This document shows, piece after piece, positions 39,681 to 62,365 of a stretch of 64,000 nucleotides of DNA. Positions within the stretch are counted from its first letter, which is position 1; each line of letters begins with the position of its first letter. The notes beneath the pieces were generated by a model. That model searched no databases and was not told the DNA's origin. It was given only the letters and a program-made list of their open reading frames with translations. Source of the stretch: Lentisphaeria bacterium (GTDB lineage Bacteria > Verrucomicrobiota > Lentisphaeria > Oligosphaerales > MVZH01); NCBI GenBank assembly GCA_032251435.1, contig JAVVEH010000024.1:1919-65918 (forward strand). Direction: 5' to 3'. Made by a program: the position numbers and the translations under genes.

Positions 39681-39840
39681 GCAATTGGGGACGTATTTGG
39701 GCAATTGGGGACGTATTCGGGGAACATGATGAAAGAGAATAAGAAAGAGATATTTTCAACTATTAAAAAGCCGTTAGAAGCAATTCTTATGTGCTTGGGG
39801 TTTTGCTCTAAGAGGATTTTTGCCCTTCTTAATTGAGGCA
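39681..39840 (-). mobile_element. Remnant 3' end of a Y1/RAYT-type element
   Basis: Minus strand AAGGGCAAAAATCCTCTTAGA resembles AAGGGCAAAAAATAGCTCTTAGA at the 3' end of the intact transposase gene (about 61299-61321); an AT-rich tract follows, then a tandemly duplicated 20-bp end GCAATTGGGGACGTATT(T/C)GG. Confidence 0.5.
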
Positions 39841-40583: not shown

Positions 40584-40645
40584 AACGTTGTCCAGAACCT
40601 TGTCCAGAACCAAAGTCAAAATGGAGTCAGGTTCTGGACAAGGTT
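40584..40645. repeat. REP-like hairpin with stuttered left arm
   Basis: AACCTTGTCCAGAACC (40596-40611) and GGTTCTGGACAAGGTT (40630-40645) form a perfect 16-bp IR; the left arm is preceded by a 12-bp duplication. Confidence 0.8.
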
Positions 40646-40757
40646 TGAATTTCGCTTGCACGAAAAACAAAAAATCTTAACTGGGGATACCGATAAAATC
40701 GAAACCTCAAGCACAAAAAAGTCGAAAATCAGCCGATTTTCATGAGTTATGGGATCA

Positions 40758-40859: not shown

Positions 40860-41309
40860 ATGAAATATACAGAAACGAGACTGGGACGGGTGTTTGTCAT
40901 CCGTCTGGAAAATGGCGATATTTTGCACGAGTGTGTTGAGACATTCGCCGCGACGCGCGGGGTGCGGGCCGGAGCGCTGCTGGCCGTCGGCGGGGTGGAT
41001 GGAGGAAGCCGATTGGTTGTCGGCCCGGAAGACGGGGAGGCCCGGCCGGTGGTTCCGATGGAGCAGGTGCTGACGGCGGCGCATGAGGCGGCCGGGGTGG
41101 GCACGCTTTTCCCGGATGAGGACGGCACGCCCATCCTGCATATGCATGCGGCCTGCGGACGGGAAAACCAAACGGTCACCGGCTGCGCGCGCCGGGGCGT
41201 GCGCGTGTGGCAGGTGCTGGAACTGATATTGATTGAATTGGCTGATACTGGAAGCATACGCAAGATGGATCCCGCGACCGGGTTCAAATTACTCGAACCT
41301 GAAGGATGA
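40860..41309 (+). CDS. PPC domain (DUF296) protein
   Basis: GRVFVIRLENG, GVGTLF, HMHAACG. Confidence 0.88.
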   Translation: MKYTETRLGRVFVIRLENGDILHECVETFAATRGVRAGALLAVGGVDGGSRLVVGPEDGEARPVVPMEQVLTAAHEAAGVGTLFPDEDGTPILHMHAACGRENQTVTGCARRGVRVWQVLELILIELADTGSIRKMDPATGFKLLEPEG

Positions 41310-41767
41310 CGAGGGTGCATATCTATATTGACGCGGACGCCTGTCCGGTTAAGGAGGAAGTCTATCGGGTCGCCCGGCGCTATGGGCTTGAGGTCACCTT
41401 GGTGGCGAATGCTTACTTGCGGATTCCGCGGGAGGACTGGGCGCGTCTTAAACTTGTTCCGGCGGGCCCTGACGAGGCGGATGACTGGATCGCGGAGTCC
41501 GCGGTCACCGGGGATATTGTCGTGACGGCCGATATTCCCCTGGCGGCCCGCTGCGTCAAAAAAGGGGCGTATGTTTTGAGTCCCAAAGGGAAGATGTTTA
41601 CCGAAAATGATATTGGCATGACACTGGCCACACGCAATTTACTCAGTGATCTTCGGGACCTGGGTGAGATCACCGGCGGGCCGCCGCCGTTTCAACCGCG
41701 TGACCGATCGCGGTTTCTCCAGCAGCTGGATAAGATCATTCAAAAGGCGGGAAGGCCCCACGGATGA
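41306..41767 (+). CDS. YaiI/YqxD (UPF0178) family protein
   Basis: IYIDADACPVKEE, DEADDWI, VTADIPLA, GGPPPF. Confidence 0.92.
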   Translation: MTRVHIYIDADACPVKEEVYRVARRYGLEVTLVANAYLRIPREDWARLKLVPAGPDEADDWIAESAVTGDIVVTADIPLAARCVKKGAYVLSPKGKMFTENDIGMTLATRNLLSDLRDLGEITGGPPPFQPRDRSRFLQQLDKIIQKAGRPHG

Positions 41768-41921: not shown

Positions 41922-41945
41922 CAATAGGGACGTTGTTGCATAACC
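41922..41945. repeat. 24-bp direct repeat (copy 1), element-end-like
   Basis: CAATAGGGACGTTGTTGCATAACC, identical copy at 42781-42804. Confidence 0.85.
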
Positions 41946-42049
41946 AAATTTTTAAGTACGCTTCTTTTTTGCAGTATTTATGACATTTATGTTTGTAAGT
42001 AAAGACTTTCTGCACCAACGGCCCCATTTTATCCAGTTCTGATATCTCT

Positions 42050-42107
42050 TGCCAACGTGCTCTTCACCGGCTGAGGCGCGAAGTCCGGTGCAAGAGGCTG
42101 GTTCAAA
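42050..42107 (-). other. Integron attC site (58 bp) of the BrnTA cassette
   Basis: Minus strand R'' TTTGAAC, L'' CTCTT(G)CACCGG pairing with CCGGTGAAGAG (extrahelical G), R' GTTGGCA; R'' is exactly complementary to GTTCAAA at the cassette start (42731-42737). Confidence 0.85.
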
Positions 42108-42114
42108 GATTGGT

Positions 42115-42384
42115 TTACAGAGAATGCTGCAGCTCGGAACGGAGACGCTCGGCGAGGAACATTTTCACCAGACTCTGATAGGGAACATCCTGCTTGTGAG
42201 CAAGCAACTTCAGTTGCTCCAGCATCGATTCCGGCAAACGCAATGAAATGCTTTTGGTAGACGGTTTGAGTTCTGGGAGAACCAAAGGCTCAGCCTCGGA
42301 CCAATTCACATATTCTGTGGAATCGTGAGTCTGCCAGAAACGGCGTTCTTCCGCTTCATTTTTGAATGTCGGTAGTCTTTTCAT
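42115..42384 (-). CDS. brnA: BrnA/CopG-type antitoxin
   Basis: PTFKNEAEERRFWQTHDS...KSISLRL...DVPYQSLVK; overlaps the toxin stop (ATGA). Confidence 0.88.
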   Translation of the reverse strand: MKRLPTFKNEAEERRFWQTHDSTEYVNWSEAEPLVLPELKPSTKSISLRLPESMLEQLKLLAHKQDVPYQSLVKMFLAERLRSELQHSL

Positions 42385-42683
42385 GATTCGTATTGCTCCG
42401 CTTCGTGTTGAGTCATGTCGCGGGCGGATATGACACGGATAAGTTTACCTCTGACGATGAAGCAAACAAACAGCAATCGATCAGCATCCGTTCTACCCAG
42501 AGCAAAATACCTGGTTTCAAATGAAGAATGTCCTCGATCGCGTTTCACTATCAAAGGTTGGTTGAAGAAAACCTGCTCGCATTCTGCTTGGGAAACATCA
42601 TGCCGGTCCCAGTTCTTGGTGGCATTTCCTGAATCCCATTGGAATCCGGTACATGAATGCAGTCTGTCTTTCGGCTTGACCAT
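42381..42683 (-). CDS. brnT: BrnT family toxin
   Basis: GFQWDSGN..KN..H.V, ETRYFALG, IRVISARDM. Confidence 0.92.
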   Translation of the reverse strand: MVKPKDRLHSCTGFQWDSGNATKNWDRHDVSQAECEQVFFNQPLIVKRDRGHSSFETRYFALGRTDADRLLFVCFIVRGKLIRVISARDMTQHEAEQYES

Positions 42684-42689
42684 GCCCTT

Positions 42690-42717
42690 AGTATATCTTT
42701 AAAATATACAAAATCAA
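42690..42717 (-). promoter_or_regulatory. BrnTA promoter with overlapping operator
   Basis: TTGATT-N16-TATACT ending 6 nt before the ATG; near-palindrome GTATATCTTTAAAATATAC at 42691-42709. Confidence 0.6.
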
Positions 42718-42780
42718 ATTACTTGCGGGATTTGAACGACGGGGTCTGGGGCTGGCTTTAGCGTTGCAATAGGGTCGTTG

Positions 42781-42804
42781 CAATAGGGACGTTGTTGCAT
42801 AACC
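42781..42804. repeat. 24-bp direct repeat (copy 2) with a stuttered 14-bp junction
   Basis: Identical to 41922-41945; preceded by CGTTGCAATAGGG(T/A) x2 (42762-42789). Confidence 0.85.
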
Positions 42805-42964
42805 TTCAAACCGCCTGGAAAAAGGCTGATGGCCACAAAAAGGCACAAAAAAACAATAACTTCCTGTCGGAGGCCCCGGAATCGATCACGATTACGACAA
42901 CCGTTCGGACCGTTCCGGTCCTCACTGACAACGACAACGACACAAAATCGAGAGCATCGCGCCA

Positions 42965-43105
42965 TCAGGCGCTCAAGTCATTTCTGGGCCAACGTCGAAT
43001 AACCCAAGCTGCTTTTTGAGCATCCTTAGCCGAAAGAGCATCCAAAAACTCCTCAACGGGGGTTTTCCCCGCACATGTTTTGTAGAATATGACTTCTCTG
43101 ACCAT
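42965..43105 (-). pseudogene. Truncated RelE/HigB (Gp49-like) toxin from a TA cassette
   Basis: MVREVIFYKTCAGKTPVEEFLDALSAKDAQKAAWVI, then unrelated sequence from a GTTGGCC site; upstream IR GTTAAC-N6-GTTAAC. Confidence 0.72.
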
Positions 43106-43162
43106 GATGGAAACAAGTTAACGCCCATGTTAACATTTCCAAGTTAAGTATGACAATTTCTG

Positions 43163-43221
43163 GGCGAACGTCATGATCTGGGGCCGACGATAGGAGCTCC
43201 CTTAGCATCTGTTTGTTGGTT
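43163..43221 (-). other. Integron attC site (59 bp)
   Basis: R'' AACCAAC, L'' GAT(G)CT pairing with L' AGATC, R' GTTCGCC; overlaps the stop of the upstream ORF. Confidence 0.8.
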
Positions 43222-44221
43222 TCGTTGCTTTAGGCAGGACGAGATGTAGCGACAATGGAGTGCCCATAAATGCTAAGATAAGCGCATCTAGGATCCACAT
43301 GCCAGCACAGTAATCGCTCTCAACATAGATATTAAAAAGAGGCAGAAAGATCAAAATGAGGGCAGTACAAGCCCAATATACGAAACTGATTGTCCTGACG
43401 GGTAAACGTCCGACCGCGCAAAGTATGTAGGTACCTCCAATCAGATAAAGGACCATCAATTTCATGCCAAAAGACATAGTGTAAAAACAATATGTTTCTG
43501 GCAAAATATCTATGCACGCAATGAGTGCCAAACTGATAGCTCCCAACCCAATGATGCCTGCAATGATTCTTCCCGGTAATCGCATTCTCACTCCTGGTTG
43601 TTTATCTGTTTCAGTCAAAGGTCTGAAGACCTCAAACTTACACCAGATCCCGATAGAAATGAAGCCTACAGCAGCAATGACAGCCAATGCGACGATCAAA
43701 TCGACGCGGTCAACTATCACGAATAGGTCTCCGAAAACTGTGAGCAGGATAAGGGCGGCCCAGACGATGGCCATGGCCGCAATCTTCAAGACGTAGTTTG
43801 CCGTTGTCATCAATATCTCTTCCCGACATGGGTGCCTACCAGATTCAGCAGCAGCCGAGTTCCGGGTCGGAGGACTGGCTGGTTGTGGTTCCGGTGCCAC
43901 TTTCCTCGAAAGCTCGAGAACAGCGAGAAAGGTCCCGCCTCCTGTGACGAAGGTTCCTAGACCTGAAACAAACACAGACCAAGGATCAATCCAATGCACA
44001 ATGGCAGAACTGCCAAAGACCGAATCAACCCCTAATTGCCTCAGAATATTCAAAAAAGTTGTGAACAGAATATAACAGGGCATCATTGCAGCCCCCACAA
44101 GGAGAGCTATTCCAGCCCGGAGGCATTTTCTGCGGATGATTAATACGCAACCTCCTATTCCCGTAAGAGCTATGCCCCCCAGCATCAAAAACTTCCATAC
44201 AGTCATCATTATTGTGATCAT
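43202..44221 (-). CDS. Cassette-borne multi-TM hypothetical protein (possibly two fused genes)
   Basis: Hydrophobic, AT-rich ORF between attC sites; internal Pro-rich linker followed by GGAAGAG plus an internal ATG (MTTANY). The track start at 44239 lies in the attC core. Confidence 0.65.
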   Translation of the reverse strand: MITIMMTVWKFLMLGGIALTGIGGCVLIIRRKCLRAGIALLVGAAMMPCYILFTTFLNILRQLGVDSVFGSSAIVHWIDPWSVFVSGLGTFVTGGGTFLAVLELSRKVAPEPQPASPPTRNSAAAESGRHPCREEILMTTANYVLKIAAMAIVWAALILLTVFGDLFVIVDRVDLIVALAVIAAVGFISIGIWCKFEVFRPLTETDKQPGVRMRLPGRIIAGIIGLGAISLALIACIDILPETYCFYTMSFGMKLMVLYLIGGTYILCAVGRLPVRTISFVYWACTALILIFLPLFNIYVESDYCAGMWILDALILAFMGTPLSLHLVLPKATKPTNRC

Positions 44222-44233
44222 TAAGTTATTCTT

Positions 44234-44302
44234 ATCCAACGTGTGCCTCTGGGGCTCTTTGGAGCGGAGCGGAAAAGAGTCCCTAGCAGGCTTTTGTTGC
44301 TT
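44234..44302 (-). other. Integron attC site (69 bp)
   Basis: R'' AAGCAAC, L'' CCT(G)CT pairing with AGAGG, stem GGGACTCTTT/AAAGAGCCCC, R' GTTGGAT. Confidence 0.87.
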
Positions 44303-44711
44303 GAATGTTCTTTGGCTGGTGTGCCAGAAACAATACTAAATCTTTAACAGTGAGTACCTCACCGTAGAAAGGATTGCCTTCAACACTATCCATATTAATG
44401 TCAAGATCATCGGCCACTTCTAAACAGATATCATACATGTCCTCGTCACACATATTGAGGGTTTTATAAAAGTCGTCGTCTGCTTTTACTGGGAATGGCC
44501 TGTCATCAATTTCTCCTATCCACTCCTGAACAGTTTCGAATACGGCACGCATTATCCTTGTGTCTACGTTGCGGTAGTCGAAGGAGCGAGCATAAGCACA
44601 AATATTTACAGGACCTCTGCTCACAGCAATTCGCCTCATCCGATGCTGCTCAATTTCAGAAGCAATGGCAAACAGTGCGAAGAAACCAAGAATTGTATAG
44701 AGCAAAATCAT
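44283..44711 (-). CDS. Cassette hypothetical protein (N-terminal TM, acidic ACP-like C-terminus)
   Basis: 142 aa; ends TVKDLVLFL; stop inside the attC. Confidence 0.7.
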   Translation of the reverse strand: MILLYTILGFFALFAIASEIEQHRMRRIAVSRGPVNICAYARSFDYRNVDTRIMRAVFETVQEWIGEIDDRPFPVKADDDFYKTLNMCDEDMYDICLEVADDLDINMDSVEGNPFYGEVLTVKDLVLFLAHQPKNIQATKAC

Positions 44712-44716
44712 ATTTT

Positions 44717-44786
44717 TCTGTGCGTGCTGATGAGGGGCTTGGCAGCCGCTGCTGATGCCAAGTCCCTCTCCATTATTTTGTTCGAC
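44717..44786 (-). other. attC site with destroyed R' core
   Basis: R'' GTCGAAC, L'' ATG(G)AG pairing with CTCAT, stem GGGACTTGGCA/TGCCAAGCCCC; the R' position reads GCACAGA instead of GTTRRRY. Confidence 0.75.
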
Positions 44787-45048
44787 CTAAATTCGGATTC
44801 AGGGAGGAGTGGTTAATAAGCCAATATGCTGTTGCCACAAAGACTCCCCCAATCAATGTGGCAAAAAACCAGATAACCGGACCAGGTCCGAAAGACTTCT
44901 CCCCCAGACGACGCAAATGGTAGCAATCGCGAAATACGTGAATCGCAAAAAAGAAATGAATCAGCAATGTGACACCTGCAATTACGGCCCACATGATAAA
45001 CATGGGAAGCCCGTTACCTGCTATCGTTGGCATGGAAATATTGAACAT
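44773..45048 (-). CDS. Cassette small membrane protein
   Basis: 91 aa, two TM segments (W.FATLIGG...AYWLIN); cassette start GTTCGAG matches its R'' GTCGAAC at 6/7. Confidence 0.72.
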   Translation of the reverse strand: MFNISMPTIAGNGLPMFIMWAVIAGVTLLIHFFFAIHVFRDCYHLRRLGEKSFGPGPVIWFFATLIGGVFVATAYWLINHSSLNPNLGRTK

Positions 45049-45059
45049 CTATTCTTCTC

Positions 45060-45104
45060 CTCGAACGTTATGATCTGGGGTCCCTCAGCATCAATTGGTT
45101 CTTT
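45060..45104 (-). other. Very short attC site (45 bp)
   Basis: AAAGAAC-CAATT-GAT(G)CT-GAGGGACCCC-AGATC-ATAAC-GTTCGAG; right half nearly identical to the attC at 43163. Confidence 0.75.
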
Positions 45105-53927: not shown

Positions 53928-55901
53928 ATGAACAGCATGACGAAGGCTATGGCATACAAAATCCTGGGACCGGCCGGGGTGGCCGTTCTGATCGGAGTGG
54001 CCGCGTTCATCGCCGGGTTCCGGATACGCGGCGGCAGTGAGGAGACGGCACCGGCGCATGGCCATGATCCGCCGGCGGAGGCGGCGGCGACAGCGGATGT
54101 CTGGACCTGCTCGATGCATCCACAGATCAAGTTGCCCAAACCTGGCAATTGCCCGATCTGCTTCATGGATTTGATCCCGCTCGCGGCGGACGAGGCGGAC
54201 GACGAGGGGCCGCGCGAACTGTTGGTCAGCGAGGCCGCCAAGGCGCTGATGGTGATCGAGACGGCGCCGGTCGAGCGCCGCTTTGTCACCGCCGAGGTGC
54301 GCATGGTCGGCAAGGTCGACTACGATGAAACGCGGGTCTCCAACATCACCGCCTGGGTGCCGGGGCGCCTCGACCGCCTGTTTGTCGACTACACCGGAGT
54401 TCCAGTCAAAAAGGGCGACCACATGGTCACCCTCTACAGCCCCGAGCTGCTTGGCGCGCAGGAAGAATTGCTCCAGGCCATCAAGGCGGCGGACCAGCTT
54501 GAAGACAGCCCGCCTGGCATCGTCCGCGAAACCGCCCGGGGCACGGTCGAGGCCGCCCGCGATAAGCTGCGGCTATGGGGACTGACCGCGGAGCAGATTG
54601 AAACCCTCGAGCGGCGCAAGTCGACCGAGGATCATGTGACCATCTACGCGCCGTCCGGCGGCATTGTCATTGACAAGAACGCCCGGGAAGGCATGTATGT
54701 GAACACCGGGACGCGCATCTACACGATCGCCGACCTGTCGCGCGTCTGGGTTAACCTGGCGGCCTACGAATCCGACCTGCGGTGGCTGAAATACGGGCAG
54801 AAGGTTCAGTTCGCCGCCGAGTCGTACCCCGGCGAACTCTTCACCGGCACAATCTCGTTCATCCATCCGGTGCTCGACGAAGCGACGCGCACTGTCAAGG
54901 TGCGGGTGAACGTCCCCAATGAAAGCGGGCGGCTGAAGCCGGGCATGTTTGTGCGGGCCGTGGCGGAGGCGAAGGTGGGTGCCGGCGGGCGGATCATGGA
55001 TGCCGCCCTGGCCGGCAAGTGGATCAGCCCGATGCATCCGGAGATTGTCAAGGACGAGCCCGGGCCGTGCGATGTCTGCGGCATGCCTCTAGTCCGCGCC
55101 GAAAGCCTTGGCTATGTCGGCGCCGAGCCGAATGCCGGGGATTTGCCTTTGGTGATCCCGGCGACGGCGCCTTTGCTGACCGGCAGGCGGGCGGTCGTCT
55201 ATGTGGAGCTGGCGGGCCGGGACAAACCCACCTACGAGGGGCGCGAGATCGTGCTCGGGCCGCGGGCCGGCGGGCACTATCTTGTGGAGCACGGCCTGAG
55301 TGAGGGCGAGCGGGTTGTGACGCATGGCGCGTTCAAGCTTGATGCCGAACTCCAGATTCGCGCCAGGCCGAGCATGATGAATCCCGAGGGCGGCGGTTCC
55401 GGCGGCACCCACGCCCATCATGGCGGTCCGCCGGCGCAATCCGCCCCGGCACTCGATCCCGAATTCAAAAAACAGCTCGGGACGGTGATCGACGGCTATC
55501 TGGAAATCCAGGTCGCCCTGGCGAACAGCGACGCGCGCGGAGCGAAGGCGGGCGCGGTCAAGGCGCTCGCGGCGCTCGCCGGGGTGGACATGGGACTGCT
55601 CCAGGGCGACGACCACAACGACTGGATCAAGCATGCCGACGCGCTGGAGAAACTTCTGAACGCGCTTGCCGCGGCGGCAGGCATCGAGCCGGTCCGTGCG
55701 CAGTTCGCCCTGCTTTCCGATCAGGTCGCGGTCGTCCTGATCCGTTTCGGATCGCCCGGAAAGCCGCTCTACAGAGCCTCCTGCCCGATGGCCTTCGACA
55801 ACCGCGGCGCGTCTTGGGTGCAGGCGGGCGACGAGGTGAACAATCCCTATTTCGGCGATGTGATGCTGCGTTGCGGGGAGATCGAGGAGGTGCTCAAGTG
55901 A
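53928..55901 (+). CDS. cusB: CusB-type efflux membrane fusion protein with heavy-metal-binding domains and DUF3347-like C-terminus
   Basis: WTCSMHPQI..PGNCPICFMDL, YSPELL.AQEE, ADLSRVW, TRTVKVR, LKPGMF, MHPEI..CDVCGM, CPMAF...NPYFG..MLRCG. Confidence 0.88.
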   Translation: MNSMTKAMAYKILGPAGVAVLIGVAAFIAGFRIRGGSEETAPAHGHDPPAEAAATADVWTCSMHPQIKLPKPGNCPICFMDLIPLAADEADDEGPRELLVSEAAKALMVIETAPVERRFVTAEVRMVGKVDYDETRVSNITAWVPGRLDRLFVDYTGVPVKKGDHMVTLYSPELLGAQEELLQAIKAADQLEDSPPGIVRETARGTVEAARDKLRLWGLTAEQIETLERRKSTEDHVTIYAPSGGIVIDKNAREGMYVNTGTRIYTIADLSRVWVNLAAYESDLRWLKYGQKVQFAAESYPGELFTGTISFIHPVLDEATRTVKVRVNVPNESGRLKPGMFVRAVAEAKVGAGGRIMDAALAGKWISPMHPEIVKDEPGPCDVCGMPLVRAESLGYVGAEPNAGDLPLVIPATAPLLTGRRAVVYVELAGRDKPTYEGREIVLGPRAGGHYLVEHGLSEGERVVTHGAFKLDAELQIRARPSMMNPEGGGSGGTHAHHGGPPAQSAPALDPEFKKQLGTVIDGYLEIQVALANSDARGAKAGAVKALAALAGVDMGLLQGDDHNDWIKHADALEKLLNALAAAAGIEPVRAQFALLSDQVAVVLIRFGSPGKPLYRASCPMAFDNRGASWVQAGDEVNNPYFGDVMLRCGEIEEVLK

Positions 55902-58900: not shown

Positions 58901-59869
58901 GTGGTCGAGATCGCTATCGGCGGCAAACGGATCATGACCACCGTGGAGGGGCGCGAACGCTTTCCGGTCCGCGTGCGCTACCAGCGCGAACTGCGCGACA
59001 GCATCGAGGCCATGGCCAGAATTCTCGTCCCCGGCAAGGAGGGTCGGCAGATTCCGATCTCCGAGCTGGCCGAAATCCGCTATGCGCGGGGTCCGCAGGT
59101 CATCAAGAGCGAGGACACCTTTCTCGTCGGCTATGTCGTCTTCGACAAAAAGCCGGGCTTCGCGGAGGTGGATGTCGTCGAGCAGTGCCAGGCGTATCTT
59201 CAGGACAAGATCGACCGTGGCGAGTTCACTTTGCCGCGCGGGGTCAGCTATGAGTTCGCCGGCAGCTACGAGAATCAGCTCCGCGCCACCAAGACCCTGG
59301 CGGTCATTCTGCCCCTGGCCTTGTTCGCGATCTTCATGATCATCTACCTCCAGTTCAAGTCCGCGTCCACCACGCTGCTGGTCTTTTCGGGTATCTTTGT
59401 GGCCTGGTGCGGCGGCTTCCTGCTTCTCTGGCTTTATGGTCAGCCCTGGTTCATGAACTTCAGCCTGTTTGGGGTCGACATGCGCGCCCTGTTCCAGATC
59501 GGCGCGATCAATCTGAGCGTCGCCGTCTGGGTCGGCTTCCTGGCGCTGTTCGGCATCGCCACCGACGACGGCGTGGTGATGTGCGCCTACCTCACCCAGA
59601 TCTTCCGCGAAGCGCCTCCCGGCACCCGCGAAGCGATTCGCGAACGGGTGGTGGAAGCCGGCCGGCGCCGCGTCAAACCATGCCTGATGACCACCGCCAC
59701 CACCATCCTCGCCCTGCTTCCGGTCTTGACTTCGACCGGCCGCGGCAGCGATGTCATGGTCCCCATGGCGATCCCGTCGTTCGGCGGCATGCTGATCGAA
59801 GTCCTTACCATGCTGGTCGTCCCCGTGCTGTACTGCTGGATCCAGGAGCGGAAACTGAAACGTCCCTAA
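55898..59869 (+). CDS. cusA: CusA/CzcA heavy-metal RND efflux pump
   Basis: VDAIPDIGENQQIV, GPDATALG, PFYDRT, AIGTIVD, GKEFMPPLDEG, MTTATT; GTG overlaps the cusB stop with a GAGGAGG SD. Confidence 0.92.
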   Translation: MSGADPRQTPPDPQTPEQRSLVGRLTRFCLENRLVVGLFTAAIIFAGILAAPFDWRAGGLQRYPVAVDAIPDIGENQQIVFTQWMGRSPQDVEDQIGYRLTVSLLGIPGVKTIRSYSMFGFSTVYVIFKEDVEFYWSRTRVLEKLNSLPPGTLPEGVQPTLGPDATALGQIYWYTLEGRDPDGKPAGGWGPEELRTIQDWYARYWLLAADGVAEVGSIGGYVKEYQIDVDPDAMRAYGVTLDQVFQAVKAANIDVGANTLEINRTEYFIRGVGFIKTLEDIRDSVIAVGADNVPVLVRQVGTVALGPEARRGALDKGGAAVVGGVVVARYGENPLAVINNVKEKIAETRESLPAKVLIDDEAASREAVEAYADANGFAAYAGAELNNDTWLAHLRSRPRADWPSWATISKVTVAPFYDRTGLIYETLGTLNDAIAQQILVTIIVVLVMVLHLRSGVLISGMLPLTVLLCFVGMKLFGVQANIVALSGIAIAIGTIVDMGIVVCENILRHLDQREAGSGEGGSAATEAAQSTLETVHRAVSEVGGAVLTAVLTTIVSFLPVFAMIGAEGKLFKPLAYTKTFALVASIIIALTVLPPAAHLLFCGKITGRKLKTALNGGLVIAGVAVALTLAWWAGLILALFGIYHLTGGRVPERFRRHAPLAASVLVILAVGVLLTTYWEPLGPERGFPRNLVFVAVIIGGLLGFFALFQMIYARLLRWCLRHKAAFLSIPAALLLLGGMVWLGVPTMFGWLPATVMKSRPVQYLAHAFPGLGKEFMPPLDEGSFLWMPTTMAHASIGEVLDILEKQDMAFAAIPEIESAVGKLGRAETPLDPAPISMIETVINYKPEYLTDKDGRRINFKYDRRTGAFARDADGELIPDRNGRPFRQWRDHIRTPDDIWDEIVKAAKMPGTTSAPKLQPIAARIVMLQSGMRAPMGVKVKGADLETIEKVGMRIERFLKEVPSVEPAAVIADRIVGKPYLEIHPDRRALARYGIPIRQFQDVVEIAIGGKRIMTTVEGRERFPVRVRYQRELRDSIEAMARILVPGKEGRQIPISELAEIRYARGPQVIKSEDTFLVGYVVFDKKPGFAEVDVVEQCQAYLQDKIDRGEFTLPRGVSYEFAGSYENQLRATKTLAVILPLALFAIFMIIYLQFKSASTTLLVFSGIFVAWCGGFLLLWLYGQPWFMNFSLFGVDMRALFQIGAINLSVAVWVGFLALFGIATDDGVVMCAYLTQIFREAPPGTREAIRERVVEAGRRRVKPCLMTTATTILALLPVLTSTGRGSDVMVPMAIPSFGGMLIEVLTMLVVPVLYCWIQERKLKRP

Positions 59870-59888
59870 CCCGCATATTTCGTGAAAA

Positions 59889-60368
59889 ATGAAAAAATGT
59901 AGTTCAGTATGTTTGCGGGCAGGACTTTATGCAAAAACAAGAAAATTACAATTTGTATATGCCTACTGGGAAAACAAATCTCACCCTTCGGGCGCTTCCC
60001 CGGCGGCCCATATCCGCGCCTTTAGCTTCAAAGCAGTGATGGTGGCGGGTGAGGCACGCAAAGGCAAGCCATCCTACCTTTCACGCCTTGTTCTGGTCAG
60101 AGATGGTCAGGATGTGTGCACCATACAGCCTCCACGTCTGTTTAGCCGTGAACTGGTCTTCACATTCCCGAATAGGGATAGGTGTTCATTCAGGTACCAT
60201 CTTTTCGGCAACACATATCGCGGCTCATCAGAAGCAGGTTGGGGATACGAGGCAATCCAAAGCGGCGACGATTGGAATCTTTCTATATGGGGACTGGAGG
60301 ACGATCTCATTCTTCTTTCAGCACTGATCTACTGTTACCGCAATGTTTACTGGAATCGATATTCGTGA
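59889..60368 (+). CDS. Hypothetical protein, probable stray integron cassette gene
   Basis: 159 aa, abruptly more AT-rich than cusA, followed 20 nt later by a partial attC. Confidence 0.55.
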   Translation: MKKCSSVCLRAGLYAKTRKLQFVYAYWENKSHPSGASPAAHIRAFSFKAVMVAGEARKGKPSYLSRLVLVRDGQDVCTIQPPRLFSRELVFTFPNRDRCSFRYHLFGNTYRGSSEAGWGYEAIQSGDDWNLSIWGLEDDLILLSALIYCYRNVYWNRYS

Positions 60369-60388
60369 CCACGATTTAGAAACTCAAG

Positions 60389-60429
60389 ACACAACAAGCC
60401 TCTTGCACCGGACTTCGTACCTCAGCCGG
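60389..60429 (+). other. Truncated attC site
   Basis: ACACAAC-AAGCCTCTTGCACCGGACTTCGTACCTCAGCCGG, 35/38 identical to the attC at 42050-42107, but lacks TGAAGAG...GTT because the Y1 element junction follows. Confidence 0.82.
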
Positions 60430-60443
60430 AATTAAGTAGGAAT

Positions 60444-61400
60444 TAAGGGTCAGATACTGTATTTTTAAATATAAAATGCTACAATAAAGATATTTGCAAT
60501 TTTAAACTGTGATATCAATATATTTTAGAAAGATTATTTAAAGGCCAATTATTTAGTTTAAGACTTCGAGGCCATTGCCATGCCAAGACGCCGCCGCTGC
60601 TGGGTTAATCATGCCACCTATCACATCACCCATCGCTGTCATGAACGGCGTTTTCTTTTAAAATTTGCCAAATACCGGGACATGTACCGGCGCTATCTTT
60701 TCGAGGCCACCCGGCGGTTCAATATTTCCGTTCTGGCCTACGTGGTCACCTCCAATCATGTGCACCTTCTGATTGCCACAGGTGACCGGGGGCGCCCCCG
60801 GGTTTCGGAAGCCCTGCAGTATATTCATGGCGAGATGGGGCAGCACTACAACTTGCGTCGGCACCGAGAGGGGGCGTTCTGGTCCAATCGCTTTCACGCG
60901 ACCCGGATAGAAAGCGGTGTCCACCTGCAGCGCTGCCTTTTTTATATCGATATGAACATGGTGAGGGCGGGTGTGGTCCGGCATCCCGCGGAATGGCCGC
61001 ACGGGTCAGCGTTTGAGCTGGCATCCGACCGGCTGCGGTACCGGGTGATCGACCGGGCCAAACTGATTGGCAGGCTTGGGTTCGACGACTGGGACGAATT
61101 CAGGCAGTGGTATGACGGAGCGCTCGGGACAATTCTGGACCGTCGGATATTCATGCGCCGGGAATCCTTCTGGAGCACTTCCGTGGCGGTCGGCGGCGGC
61201 GAATGGATTGAATCGGTAGCGCGACAGAGGGGAATGAAGCGCTATAGCGCCTTGGAAACCGGTGTGGATTGGCCGGAAAACGTTAAATCAATTTTCGTAA
61301 GGGCAAAAAATAGCTCTTAGATCCCCTTATTTATTTTTTAAAATATATAAGTTGTTCAATATAAACAAAATAAGTTTCATAATATAGTGTCCGACCCTTA
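60444..61400 (+). mobile_element. Y1 (RAYT-like) transposase element with imperfect 20-bp terminal inverted repeats
   Basis: Left end TAAGGGTCAGATACTGTATT vs right end (reverse complement) TAAGGGTCGGACACTATATT, 17/20; AT-rich subterminal tracts; a single transposase ORF inside. Confidence 0.78.
60580..61320 (+). CDS. Y1/HUH tyrosine transposase (IS200-like, REP-associated type)
   Basis: TYHITHRC, YVVTSNHVHLL (HUH), FWSNRF, YIDMNMVRAG (catalytic Tyr), W..S.AVG. Confidence 0.92.
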   Translation: MPRRRRCWVNHATYHITHRCHERRFLLKFAKYRDMYRRYLFEATRRFNISVLAYVVTSNHVHLLIATGDRGRPRVSEALQYIHGEMGQHYNLRRHREGAFWSNRFHATRIESGVHLQRCLFYIDMNMVRAGVVRHPAEWPHGSAFELASDRLRYRVIDRAKLIGRLGFDDWDEFRQWYDGALGTILDRRIFMRRESFWSTSVAVGGGEWIESVARQRGMKRYSALETGVDWPENVKSIFVRAKNSS

Positions 61401-61453
61401 TGCGCAAACTGAAGAACTGAAGGAACTGAAGGCAAGAAAATCCTGACAACTGA

Positions 61454-62365
61454 TTACCCGACACTGACACAGGTCGAATCGATGGTAATCGGCAGGATGG
61501 CGCCGTCTTCCGCGTAGTCAACCCGGCTGATCCAGAAATCCCTGAAGAACCGGTTGTTGGAAAAGGCCATTTCGCAGTAGGTGAAGTACCACTGGCCTTT
61601 CCACTCGAAGTAATTCCCGTGCCGCCCCTGGGTGGGTCCATGCGGCCAGGTGCGTTCGCGGAAGCGCGCTTCCATTTTGTCGGGATCGATGACGCATCCA
61701 CGACAGTCATAAGGTCCCATCAGCGATTCGGACATGGCGTAGTAGCTGCCCCATGAGAGGTAGTAAAGTCCATTCCGTTTATGGAGCGACACCTTGTCAT
61801 CCGTCTTGCCCTTGCCGTAGGGGCCTTCCGGATTCTTCACCTCCAGCAATTGGGGTTTGCCAACAATGGAGAGCATGTCGTCGGCCATCCGCGCGATGTA
61901 GTAGTCCCAGACACCAAAGACAATGTAGACGGTTCCGTCATCCTCCTTGAAGAAACAGGGATCATACACCTTGGTGTCCGCGCAGTCGGGTTTCAGCAAT
62001 GGGCCGCCAAGCGGATCCTTCCATGGTCCGCCGGGCGCGTCACTCACGACCAGTGCAATCTGGGCGCCGTCTCCGTCGCGGTTCATATCCGACAGGGCCC
62101 AGTAGTGCTTGCCGTCCTTCTCGACCGCGTCCGTGGCCCAGCACGCATCCATGGGCTTGCCGATATAGATGTCTTCAGGTTTCAGCGTCGACTCATGCCG
62201 CCAATTTAGAAGATCATCGGATGACCAGACCCACCAGTCCTTCATGACGAATGTCTTGTTGTCCTTCGCGTGATCGTGCGAAGCGTAAAGGTACGCCCGA
62301 TCATTGAAGATGTGGATATGCGGGTCGTTGACCCCCTGACCGATGATGTTGATGGCTTCTTTCAT
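61454..62365 (-). CDS. Glycoside hydrolase family 43
   Basis: NDPHIHIF..RAYLYASHD, WATD, YDPCFF.EDDG, HKRNGLYYLSW, HGNYFEWKGQWY. Confidence 0.87.
   Translation of the reverse strand: MKEAINIIGQGVNDPHIHIFNDRAYLYASHDHAKDNKTFVMKDWWVWSSDDLLNWRHESTLKPEDIYIGKPMDACWATDAVEKDGKHYWALSDMNRDGDGAQIALVVSDAPGGPWKDPLGGPLLKPDCADTKVYDPCFFKEDDGTVYIVFGVWDYYIARMADDMLSIVGKPQLLEVKNPEGPYGKGKTDDKVSLHKRNGLYYLSWGSYYAMSESLMGPYDCRGCVIDPDKMEARFRERTWPHGPTQGRHGNYFEWKGQWYFTYCEMAFSNNRFFRDFWISRVDYAEDGAILPITIDSTCVSVG

Follow-up and report, generated by a model that had tools for sequence, protein, structure and literature searches.

TIRtron ends, stuttered junctions and a truncated attC site in a Lentisphaeria genome

RAYT-like genes lying between terminal inverted repeats (TIRs) were named TIRYTs, and the units that they form TIRtrons, by Di Nocera, De Gregorio and Rocco in 2013 (PMC3733652), and the published TIRtron motif is GGGGWSAS, i.e. 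GGGG[AT][CG]A[CG] (PMC3733652, PMC6006769). Quentin et al. (2018) equated TIRYT/TIRtron with TnpA-Y1 subclass 2.1, whose members have an NHVH motif, a length of ~238-240 aa, a C-terminal extension and a Y---NP signature (PMC6006769, Table 1). This subclass matches RAYT group 1 of Bertels et al. (2017), which has the top duplication rate among true RAYTs, with ~6% recent duplicates (PMC5581495). The accessible text of the original description reports no integron link, target site, stuttered ends, adjacent deletions or transposed copies (PMC3733652).

Three other systems bear comparison, each as far as the accessible parts of the cited sources describe it. As established for its enzyme family, the TnpA-REP transposase of Escherichia coli forms a 5′-phosphotyrosine link and leaves a free 3′-OH (Ton-Hoang et al. 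2012, PMC3333891), the amplification of BIMEs by this enzyme has been proposed to proceed through a cycle of nicking, primed extension and rejoining (PMC3333891), and its recognition of REPs is the subject of further literature (PMC8266576). The IS200/IS605 elements use Y1 HUH chemistry and make no target-site duplication. IS1111-attC elements (PMC11187229) and group IIC-attC introns (PMC7923331) reside inside the attC sites of integron cassettes, at a fixed position and by means of other enzymes. Here, we describe a TIRtron that adjoins a truncated attC in a 64,000-nt stretch of the genome of a Lentisphaeria bacterium (GCA_032251435.1, contig JAVVEH010000024.1, positions 1,919 to 65,918), referred to as the window. 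Other contigs of the assembly are cited by C numbers and family loci by L numbers.

The window element and its setting

The unit spans 957 bp (60444-61400), and its TIRs are complementary at 17/20 and 21/26 positions (Table 1). Sequence comparison thus bears out the stuttered junction and the 957-bp unit with 17/20 TIRs described in a first-pass annotation of this DNA, as well as the lack of a target-site duplication, of which none was seen at this element. At the left junction, the first 9-nt unit of the stutter and the attC arm have GG in common (60428-60429), while the copies of the right stutter have a common outer start when read towards the element interior. The flanks are unrelated, with a cassette behind a CusA-type gene on the left and an intact GH43 gene on the right.

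Table 1. Coordinates of the element, its flanks and related features in the window
Feature	Position	Strand	Basis or remark
Stuttered 3′-end remnant, C20/C3-type TIRtron	39681..39840	+	similarity to C20 paralog
Orphan TIRtron end, AT-rich interior	41926..42049	+	reaches R′ box of intact attC
Intact attC, same family as the truncated site, last site of array	42050..42107	-	attC heuristic
Second cut attC, 3′ half only	42731..42762	-	22/23 identical to intact attC C72:1814
Orphan TIRtron end, other subfamily, GGGACGTTG core, 14-nt stutter unit	42763..42804	+	adjoins second half-attC
Cassette ORF, 159 aa	59889..60368	+	ends 24 nt before attC R″ box
5′ attC part (R″, L″, loop, 4 nt of return arm)	60389..60429	+	L′, R′ absent
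Left stutter	60428..60446	+	9-nt unit, 2 extra bases, same unit into TIR
Left TIR, GGGTCAGATAC core	60444..60469	+	complementarity and family consensus
TIRYT, 246-aa HUH/Y1 transposase, intact frame	60580..61320	+	Pfam, NF047646, alignment, fold
Right TIR	61375..61400	-	complementarity to left TIR
Right stutter	61407..61432	-	three copies of 8-nt unit
Intact GH43 glycoside hydrolase gene	61454..62365	-	ends 53 nt from TIR

The transposase frame is intact, as had been claimed, and matches Pfam Y1_Tnp (E 6e-10) and, at 79.7 bits against a cut-off of 80, NF047646. H60, H62, Y122 and N126 are invariant across 28 aligned homologs, and W101 is also present in this protein with its H60-V-H62 triad. 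The predicted structure (pLDDT 88) has E. coli TnpA-REP (4ER8) as its best fold match (E 5e-8), and the two have fold and catalytic residues in common. Unlike REPtrons, TIRtrons lack GTAG-footed REP hairpins, have unfolded inverted-repeat ends and move as a whole unit; around the window gene, no GTAG REP hairpins were found by sequence and the ends fold no better than shuffles. The IS200/IS605 elements differ too: the protein scores 24.5 bits against the TnpA-IS200 profile, below the 55-bit cut-off, and lacks a Y---Q motif, and the element has TIRs but neither subterminal hairpins nor tnpB.

With its NHVH motif, its similar length, its C-terminal extension and no REPs, the window TIRYT resembles subclass 2.1 as described in the accessible parts of PMC6006769. 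It departs from that subclass in its Y motif, which reads YIDMNM rather than Y---NP, the Y and N being kept and the P replaced by M in 28/28 aligned homologs, and, having no HTH/DnaA-C domain by Pfam, it stands closer to subclass 2.1.1. Likewise, the RAYT-like Y1 gene, the TIRs at set distances and the orphan TIR repeats in the genome agree with the original TIRtron description, as far as its accessible text goes, but the window TIRs have three G's where the published motif has four (PMC3733652); AGGGTCAG on the left agrees with the GGGGWSAS-type motif at 7/8 and AGGGTCGG on the right at 6/8 positions. The window unit is a TIRtron, an HUH/Y1 gene between GGGTC-type TIRs; the class proposed in the first-pass annotation is not new, its name dating from 2013 and its identification with subclass 2.1 from 2018 (PMC3733652, PMC6006769, both consulted in part), although it is barely studied. 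The assembly holds no identical copy of the window element, the closest being 74% identical in DNA, and there was no match in Rfam for the window or in a plasmid collection at E 1e-25.

The attC sites were called with our own heuristic, whose box layout follows the usual attC arrangement and the accessible part of PMC7923331, and with an HMM. The heuristic gave 45 hits vs 2 in shuffled sequence in 170 kb upstream of intI genes and 83 vs 37 genome-wide, and its use was therefore restricted to sites in clusters or of the family; the HMM, built from six seed sites, gave 12 hits in the genome, 11 of them well supported. The attC family of the window is real, with members in cassette arrays on C72, C88 and C15 and within the window, and the C72 array contains 11 further attC sites by the heuristic. 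The site next to the element has R″ and L″ boxes after an ORF and relatives in cassette arrays, which identifies it as a truncated member. Its likeness to the intact site at 42050 stands, but not the earlier figure of 35/38, since 60393-60429 matches 42067-42103 (minus strand) at 34/37 positions, or 34/38 over a 38-nt window. As stated earlier, it stops after CCGG, with 4 nt of the hairpin's return arm retained. The claim that the attC end is missing beyond the right TIR also withstood scrutiny, the best match to the missing 14-nt arm in 100 nt being 8/14, where random windows give 7-9; the TGAAG repeats at 61407-61432 were considered as the lost arm and rejected, their match being at chance level and the repeats being explained as the right-end stutter.

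Between the CusA-type gene and the cassette ORF behind it (59869-59889), there is neither an attI nor a core site that could be recognised, and the cassette stands as a lone ORF-plus-attC. A search among 23 candidates returned only the ORF itself as a sequence homolog, and the modelled product has a LURP-one/scramblase-like fold (TM 0.68 to a LOR cluster, under the bar for naming), which may serve as a lead only. Elsewhere in the window, a minus-strand cassette array (~42050-45100) with no intI nearby and at least four intact attC sites is bracketed by TIRtron ends; it comprises a BrnT/CopG-antitoxin cassette, several orphan ORFs and a broken cassette at ~42968-43105. The genome as a whole carries three intI genes (C54, C55, C20), and its attC sites, which number at least 32, are spread over several arrays.

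TIRtron paralogs are present on C6 (78% aa identity), C20 and C3, with a remnant on C7, all with TIRtron-type ends, and the C6 copy has the exact GGGGWSAS motif at both ends. A related 3′-end remnant had been reported at 39681-39840; it is real, but of another subfamily than the window element: at 39687/39707 it is 76% identical over 62 nt (E 2e-6) to the C20 paralog, at the 3′ end of the latter. This C20 paralog lies ~750 nt from the matched part of an intI; the full TIRtron at C20:62301-65050 occupies the place immediately upstream of a long-form intI in which one would expect attI and cassettes. The end of a YaiI/YqxD (DUF188) gene occurs in two near-identical copies, one in the window (41306-41767), intact and followed 160 nt later by another TIRtron end, and one on C7 (near 55350-55600) that is cut by a stuttered TIRtron right end. 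A palindromic repeat with a TTGTCCAGAACC core is found in the window (~40585-40655) and on C19, C30, C38, C63 and C14, twice inside TIRtron remnants. Two ends, in the left flank of L075 and at C5:96546, lie 25-50 nt behind tRNA-like 3′ ends (tRNA identity by eye). Composite TIR-cassette-TIR units were considered and rejected, since the orphan ends near arrays point the same way.

Conservation, mobility and stutter in the family

The homolog set of 175 loci draws on genomes (the best 80 of 145) and metagenomes (the best 80 of 415), with 15 further loci added. Eleven loci, ten repeats of the same locus and the window itself, were dropped before most counts, while the window was retained in the short-stutter parsing, the family consensus and the target-site duplication analyses. 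In this best-match set, among loci with enough flank, the end motif is found at 135/155 left and 123/151 right ends, and at both in 103/135, against 12 and 16 in the wrong-orientation control, and the family TIR consensus is (G)GGGTCGGACC. Copies that are 97-99% identical within one genome, with unrelated flanks, were found in four cases (L127/L133, L018/L020, L045/L060 and L004/L005, the last compared at left ends only), and near-identical copies across records form several further groups in the best-match set. Homology between such copies stops ~4-12 nt outside the G-run, and their presence at different sites supports the mobility of the class, as judged from sequence. Direct matches of at least 7 nt between flanks occur in 8/101 loci vs 4.7 expected within loci, at scattered positions, with L191 alone resembling a target-site duplication; such scattered matches indicate no regular duplication, and a hidden one was rejected. 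The earlier proposal of a mobile, RAYT-like class with conserved GGGTC/GGGAC TIRs is thus upheld by these ends and copies, and by the missing duplication. Divergent elements occupy the same host position in two settings, between fabH and queH (L035 and L209) and at the end of a transketolase-domain gene (L021, L039 and L199), and may be either old vertical copies or the outcome of repeated site use.

Stutter is family-wide and polar, the copies beginning 5-12 nt outside the repeat and running inward. A perfect tandem unit of at least 7 nt is present at 58/237 ends, compared with 8/1030 controls taken from flanks and 1/711 taken from element interiors. Duplications of at least 40 nt occur at 22 ends; in 16 of these, the duplicated stretch begins between -5 and -12 and reaches 33-638 nt into the element. 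For short stutters, a weak string-parsing test of polarity gave a fixed start in 14, a fixed end in 9 and a tie in 1 (n=24).

Loss of flanking DNA is not confined to the window. Among 127 open frames that reach an end (74 loci), a Pfam domain is cut at the end in nine loci, with L127 as a tenth. In 9/10 of these loci, the C6 paralog included, the missing part of the domain is absent from the opposite flank, as assessed over 750 nt on the same strand in stop-free stretches of at least 30 aa, which makes flank loss a general feature; the exception, L033, is ambiguous, there being RHS repeats in either flank. Some pairs (L049/L052, L004/L002) have only one flank in common, and TIRtron flanks, in contrast to those of IS200/IS605 elements, cannot be rejoined to give a clean empty site. 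Empty alleles were sought in 40 relatives, 12 genomes of the genus of G187 and 41 genomes of the genus of G189, and none was found, so that insertion followed by deletion and one-step replacement are not separable. Adjacent deletions are well documented for other insertion sequences, according to the accessible part of PMC11708052.

Other repeated or mobile structures are also met at TIRtron ends. In two unrelated genomes, CRISPR arrays are cut inside a spacer by TIRtron ends (L133, ~2320-2700, and the left flank of L244), and an end in the right flank of L020 adjoins a cut group II intron maturase domain. The sequence at the left end of L047 is similar to what we take to be the 3′ end of a group II intron.

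Explanations for the truncated attC

In our judgement, the window attC was probably cut by a deletion next to the TIRtron end and was not chosen as a target: relatives are rarely found at attC sites, and the missing half was therefore likely lost in an end-adjacent deletion. The first-pass annotation had named an independent deletion as the finding that would count against attC targeting, and a deletion largely does explain the truncation, but that deletion was probably linked to the end of the element and not independent of it.

A deletion of the independent kind would have involved insertion downstream of the site, after which the host or IntI, acting without TIRYT through slippage at the attC hairpin or GG microhomology, joined the stem to the stutter. 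The 2-nt GG overlap at 60428-60429, the position of the junction 4 nt into the return arm and the other broken cassettes of the array region are in keeping with such an event. However, no more than 11 nt separate the endpoint from the predicted nick zone, and loss of flanking DNA is seen across the family (9/10 loci), mostly with no hairpin present, which makes a TIRYT-independent origin rather unlikely.

The first-pass annotation had favoured another explanation, in which the class targets folded single-stranded attC DNA in the manner of IS1111-attC elements or group IIC-attC introns. Two of the ~22 TIRtron ends in this genome do adjoin half-attCs, both in the window. To search more widely, half-attC weight matrices were derived from 59 attC sites (from intI-upstream regions and this genome), their sensitivity being lower outside the training phylum; the two window half-sites score 17.7 (60389-60429) and 16.2 (42731-42762), with related sites in the training set. 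At a score of 12, half-attC signals occur at 3/228 ends vs 20/2012 distal windows of the best-match set (p 0.5), and one of the three end signals is an intact attC 57 nt away. Truncated attC sites, which attC targeting would make more frequent at homolog ends, are thus at background level there; the strictest test, for the 5′ half, gave 2/228 ends vs 2/2012 windows (p 0.054). Two more sets, in which some loci repeat earlier ones, gave 0/25 and 0/28. In two loci, L134 and L046, an ORF stop coincides with the R″ box of an attC-like 5′ half, which makes both, by sequence, plausible as true half-attC cases; L009, L200 and L001 are uncertain candidates.

Intact attC sites are present in 13/164 and 3/27 TIRtron loci vs 1/30 IS200 loci (same genome sample), an excess that is suggestive but not significant. 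In a phylum sample, intI is present in 7/8 TIRYT-bearing genomes vs 38/150 overall; however, the corresponding figures in the class of G188 are 10/13 vs 30/48, and outside this genome none of the TIRYT hits lies near an intI (0/11 in the phylum sample; 0/27 within 20 kb in the class of G188). The co-orientation of attC and transposase in 14/16 loci was rejected as a special feature because flanking genes are co-oriented too, in 21/30. Our literature search, which covered few subscription papers, found nothing on a link between TIRtrons and integrons or on stuttered ends.

The geometry of the junctions also speaks against targeting. DNA beside the ends shows no stronger folding than more distant DNA, with a mean z for hairpin excess of -0.39 vs -0.20 to -0.57 over ~200 ends, and general hairpin targeting was rejected on this basis. 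The two half-attC junctions of the window lie at different hairpin positions and involve different subfamilies, and both are one-sided, unlike a fixed-position insertion that keeps both parts of the attC. None of the other full-length paralogs in this genome sits in an attC. Compared with IS1111-attC elements and group IIC-attC introns, ~1-2% of TIRtron ends touch an attC, and they do so at varying positions and with the other half missing. Targeting of attC as a property of the whole class is largely refuted, and we regard it as very improbable.

It is scarcely credible that the junction and the stutters are artefacts of short-read assembly at G-runs, since, even though this is a 91-contig draft in which some duplicated ends stand beside N gaps (C3, C6, C10), stutter is found in single-contig or chromosome-level records (L127, L133, L079, L244), differs between near-identical copies and is the same in orthologous loci of separate assemblies (L020/L204/L231 and L230/L232).

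In this genome, the second half-attC of the window and a gathering of ends near arrays do favour the first-pass annotation. Among 20 AT-rich ends, 5 have an intact attC within 2.5 kb, vs 3.3% of AT-rich control positions, and when the ends are grouped into clusters (our own grouping), 3/14 do so (p 0.01). This points to a regional pull towards arrays, where TIRtron ends gather, probably because arrays tolerate insertion and loss.

A proposed route for end-adjacent deletion

Under the preferred reading, a deletion tied to the element's end, the following route can be proposed. At each end, the enzyme would bind the repeat and nick the strand that leads into the element, ~5-12 nt short of the G-run, TIRYT staying joined to the 5′ end of the element through Y122. 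The freed 3′-OH of the flank would then prime copying into the element, and rejoining after a variable distance would leave a partial head-to-tail copy, that is, a stutter with a fixed outer start. Were the bound end joined instead to a more distant 3′-OH, the intervening DNA would be lost or the end relocated, and the truncated attC would be one such deletion junction. A polar, family-wide stutter fits nicking, primed copying and rejoining, and the cycle proposed for TnpA-REP, as set out in the accessible part of its description, would yield the same tandem copies. Host repair could be the source of the 2-nt GG overlap at the left junction and of its two unexplained bases.

The part of the original proposal that would have been surprising, its attC-specific claim, is not supported as a class property. 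Another part of it, that these elements may erode cassettes, is borne out at the window junction, where half an attC was lost. The interest that remains lies in the chemistry of the ends and in the flank loss, which here removed half an attC. The data point to recent movement and to a general tendency to lose flanking DNA, and the sequences yield a prediction of where nicking should occur, namely in the strand that leads into the element, at 5-12 nt from the G-run on its outer side. It is possible, though we put it forward only tentatively, that TIRtrons are an active HUH class devoid of target-site duplications, whose ends nick 5-12 nt outside the G-run, stutter, delete their neighbours and accumulate in cassette arrays, and which would be a hitherto unrecognised reason why attC sites are lost, cassettes become immobile and arrays break up. 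If true, this would represent a transposition route that combines HUH chemistry with inverted-repeat ends and is able to strip attC sites, CRISPR arrays and genes.
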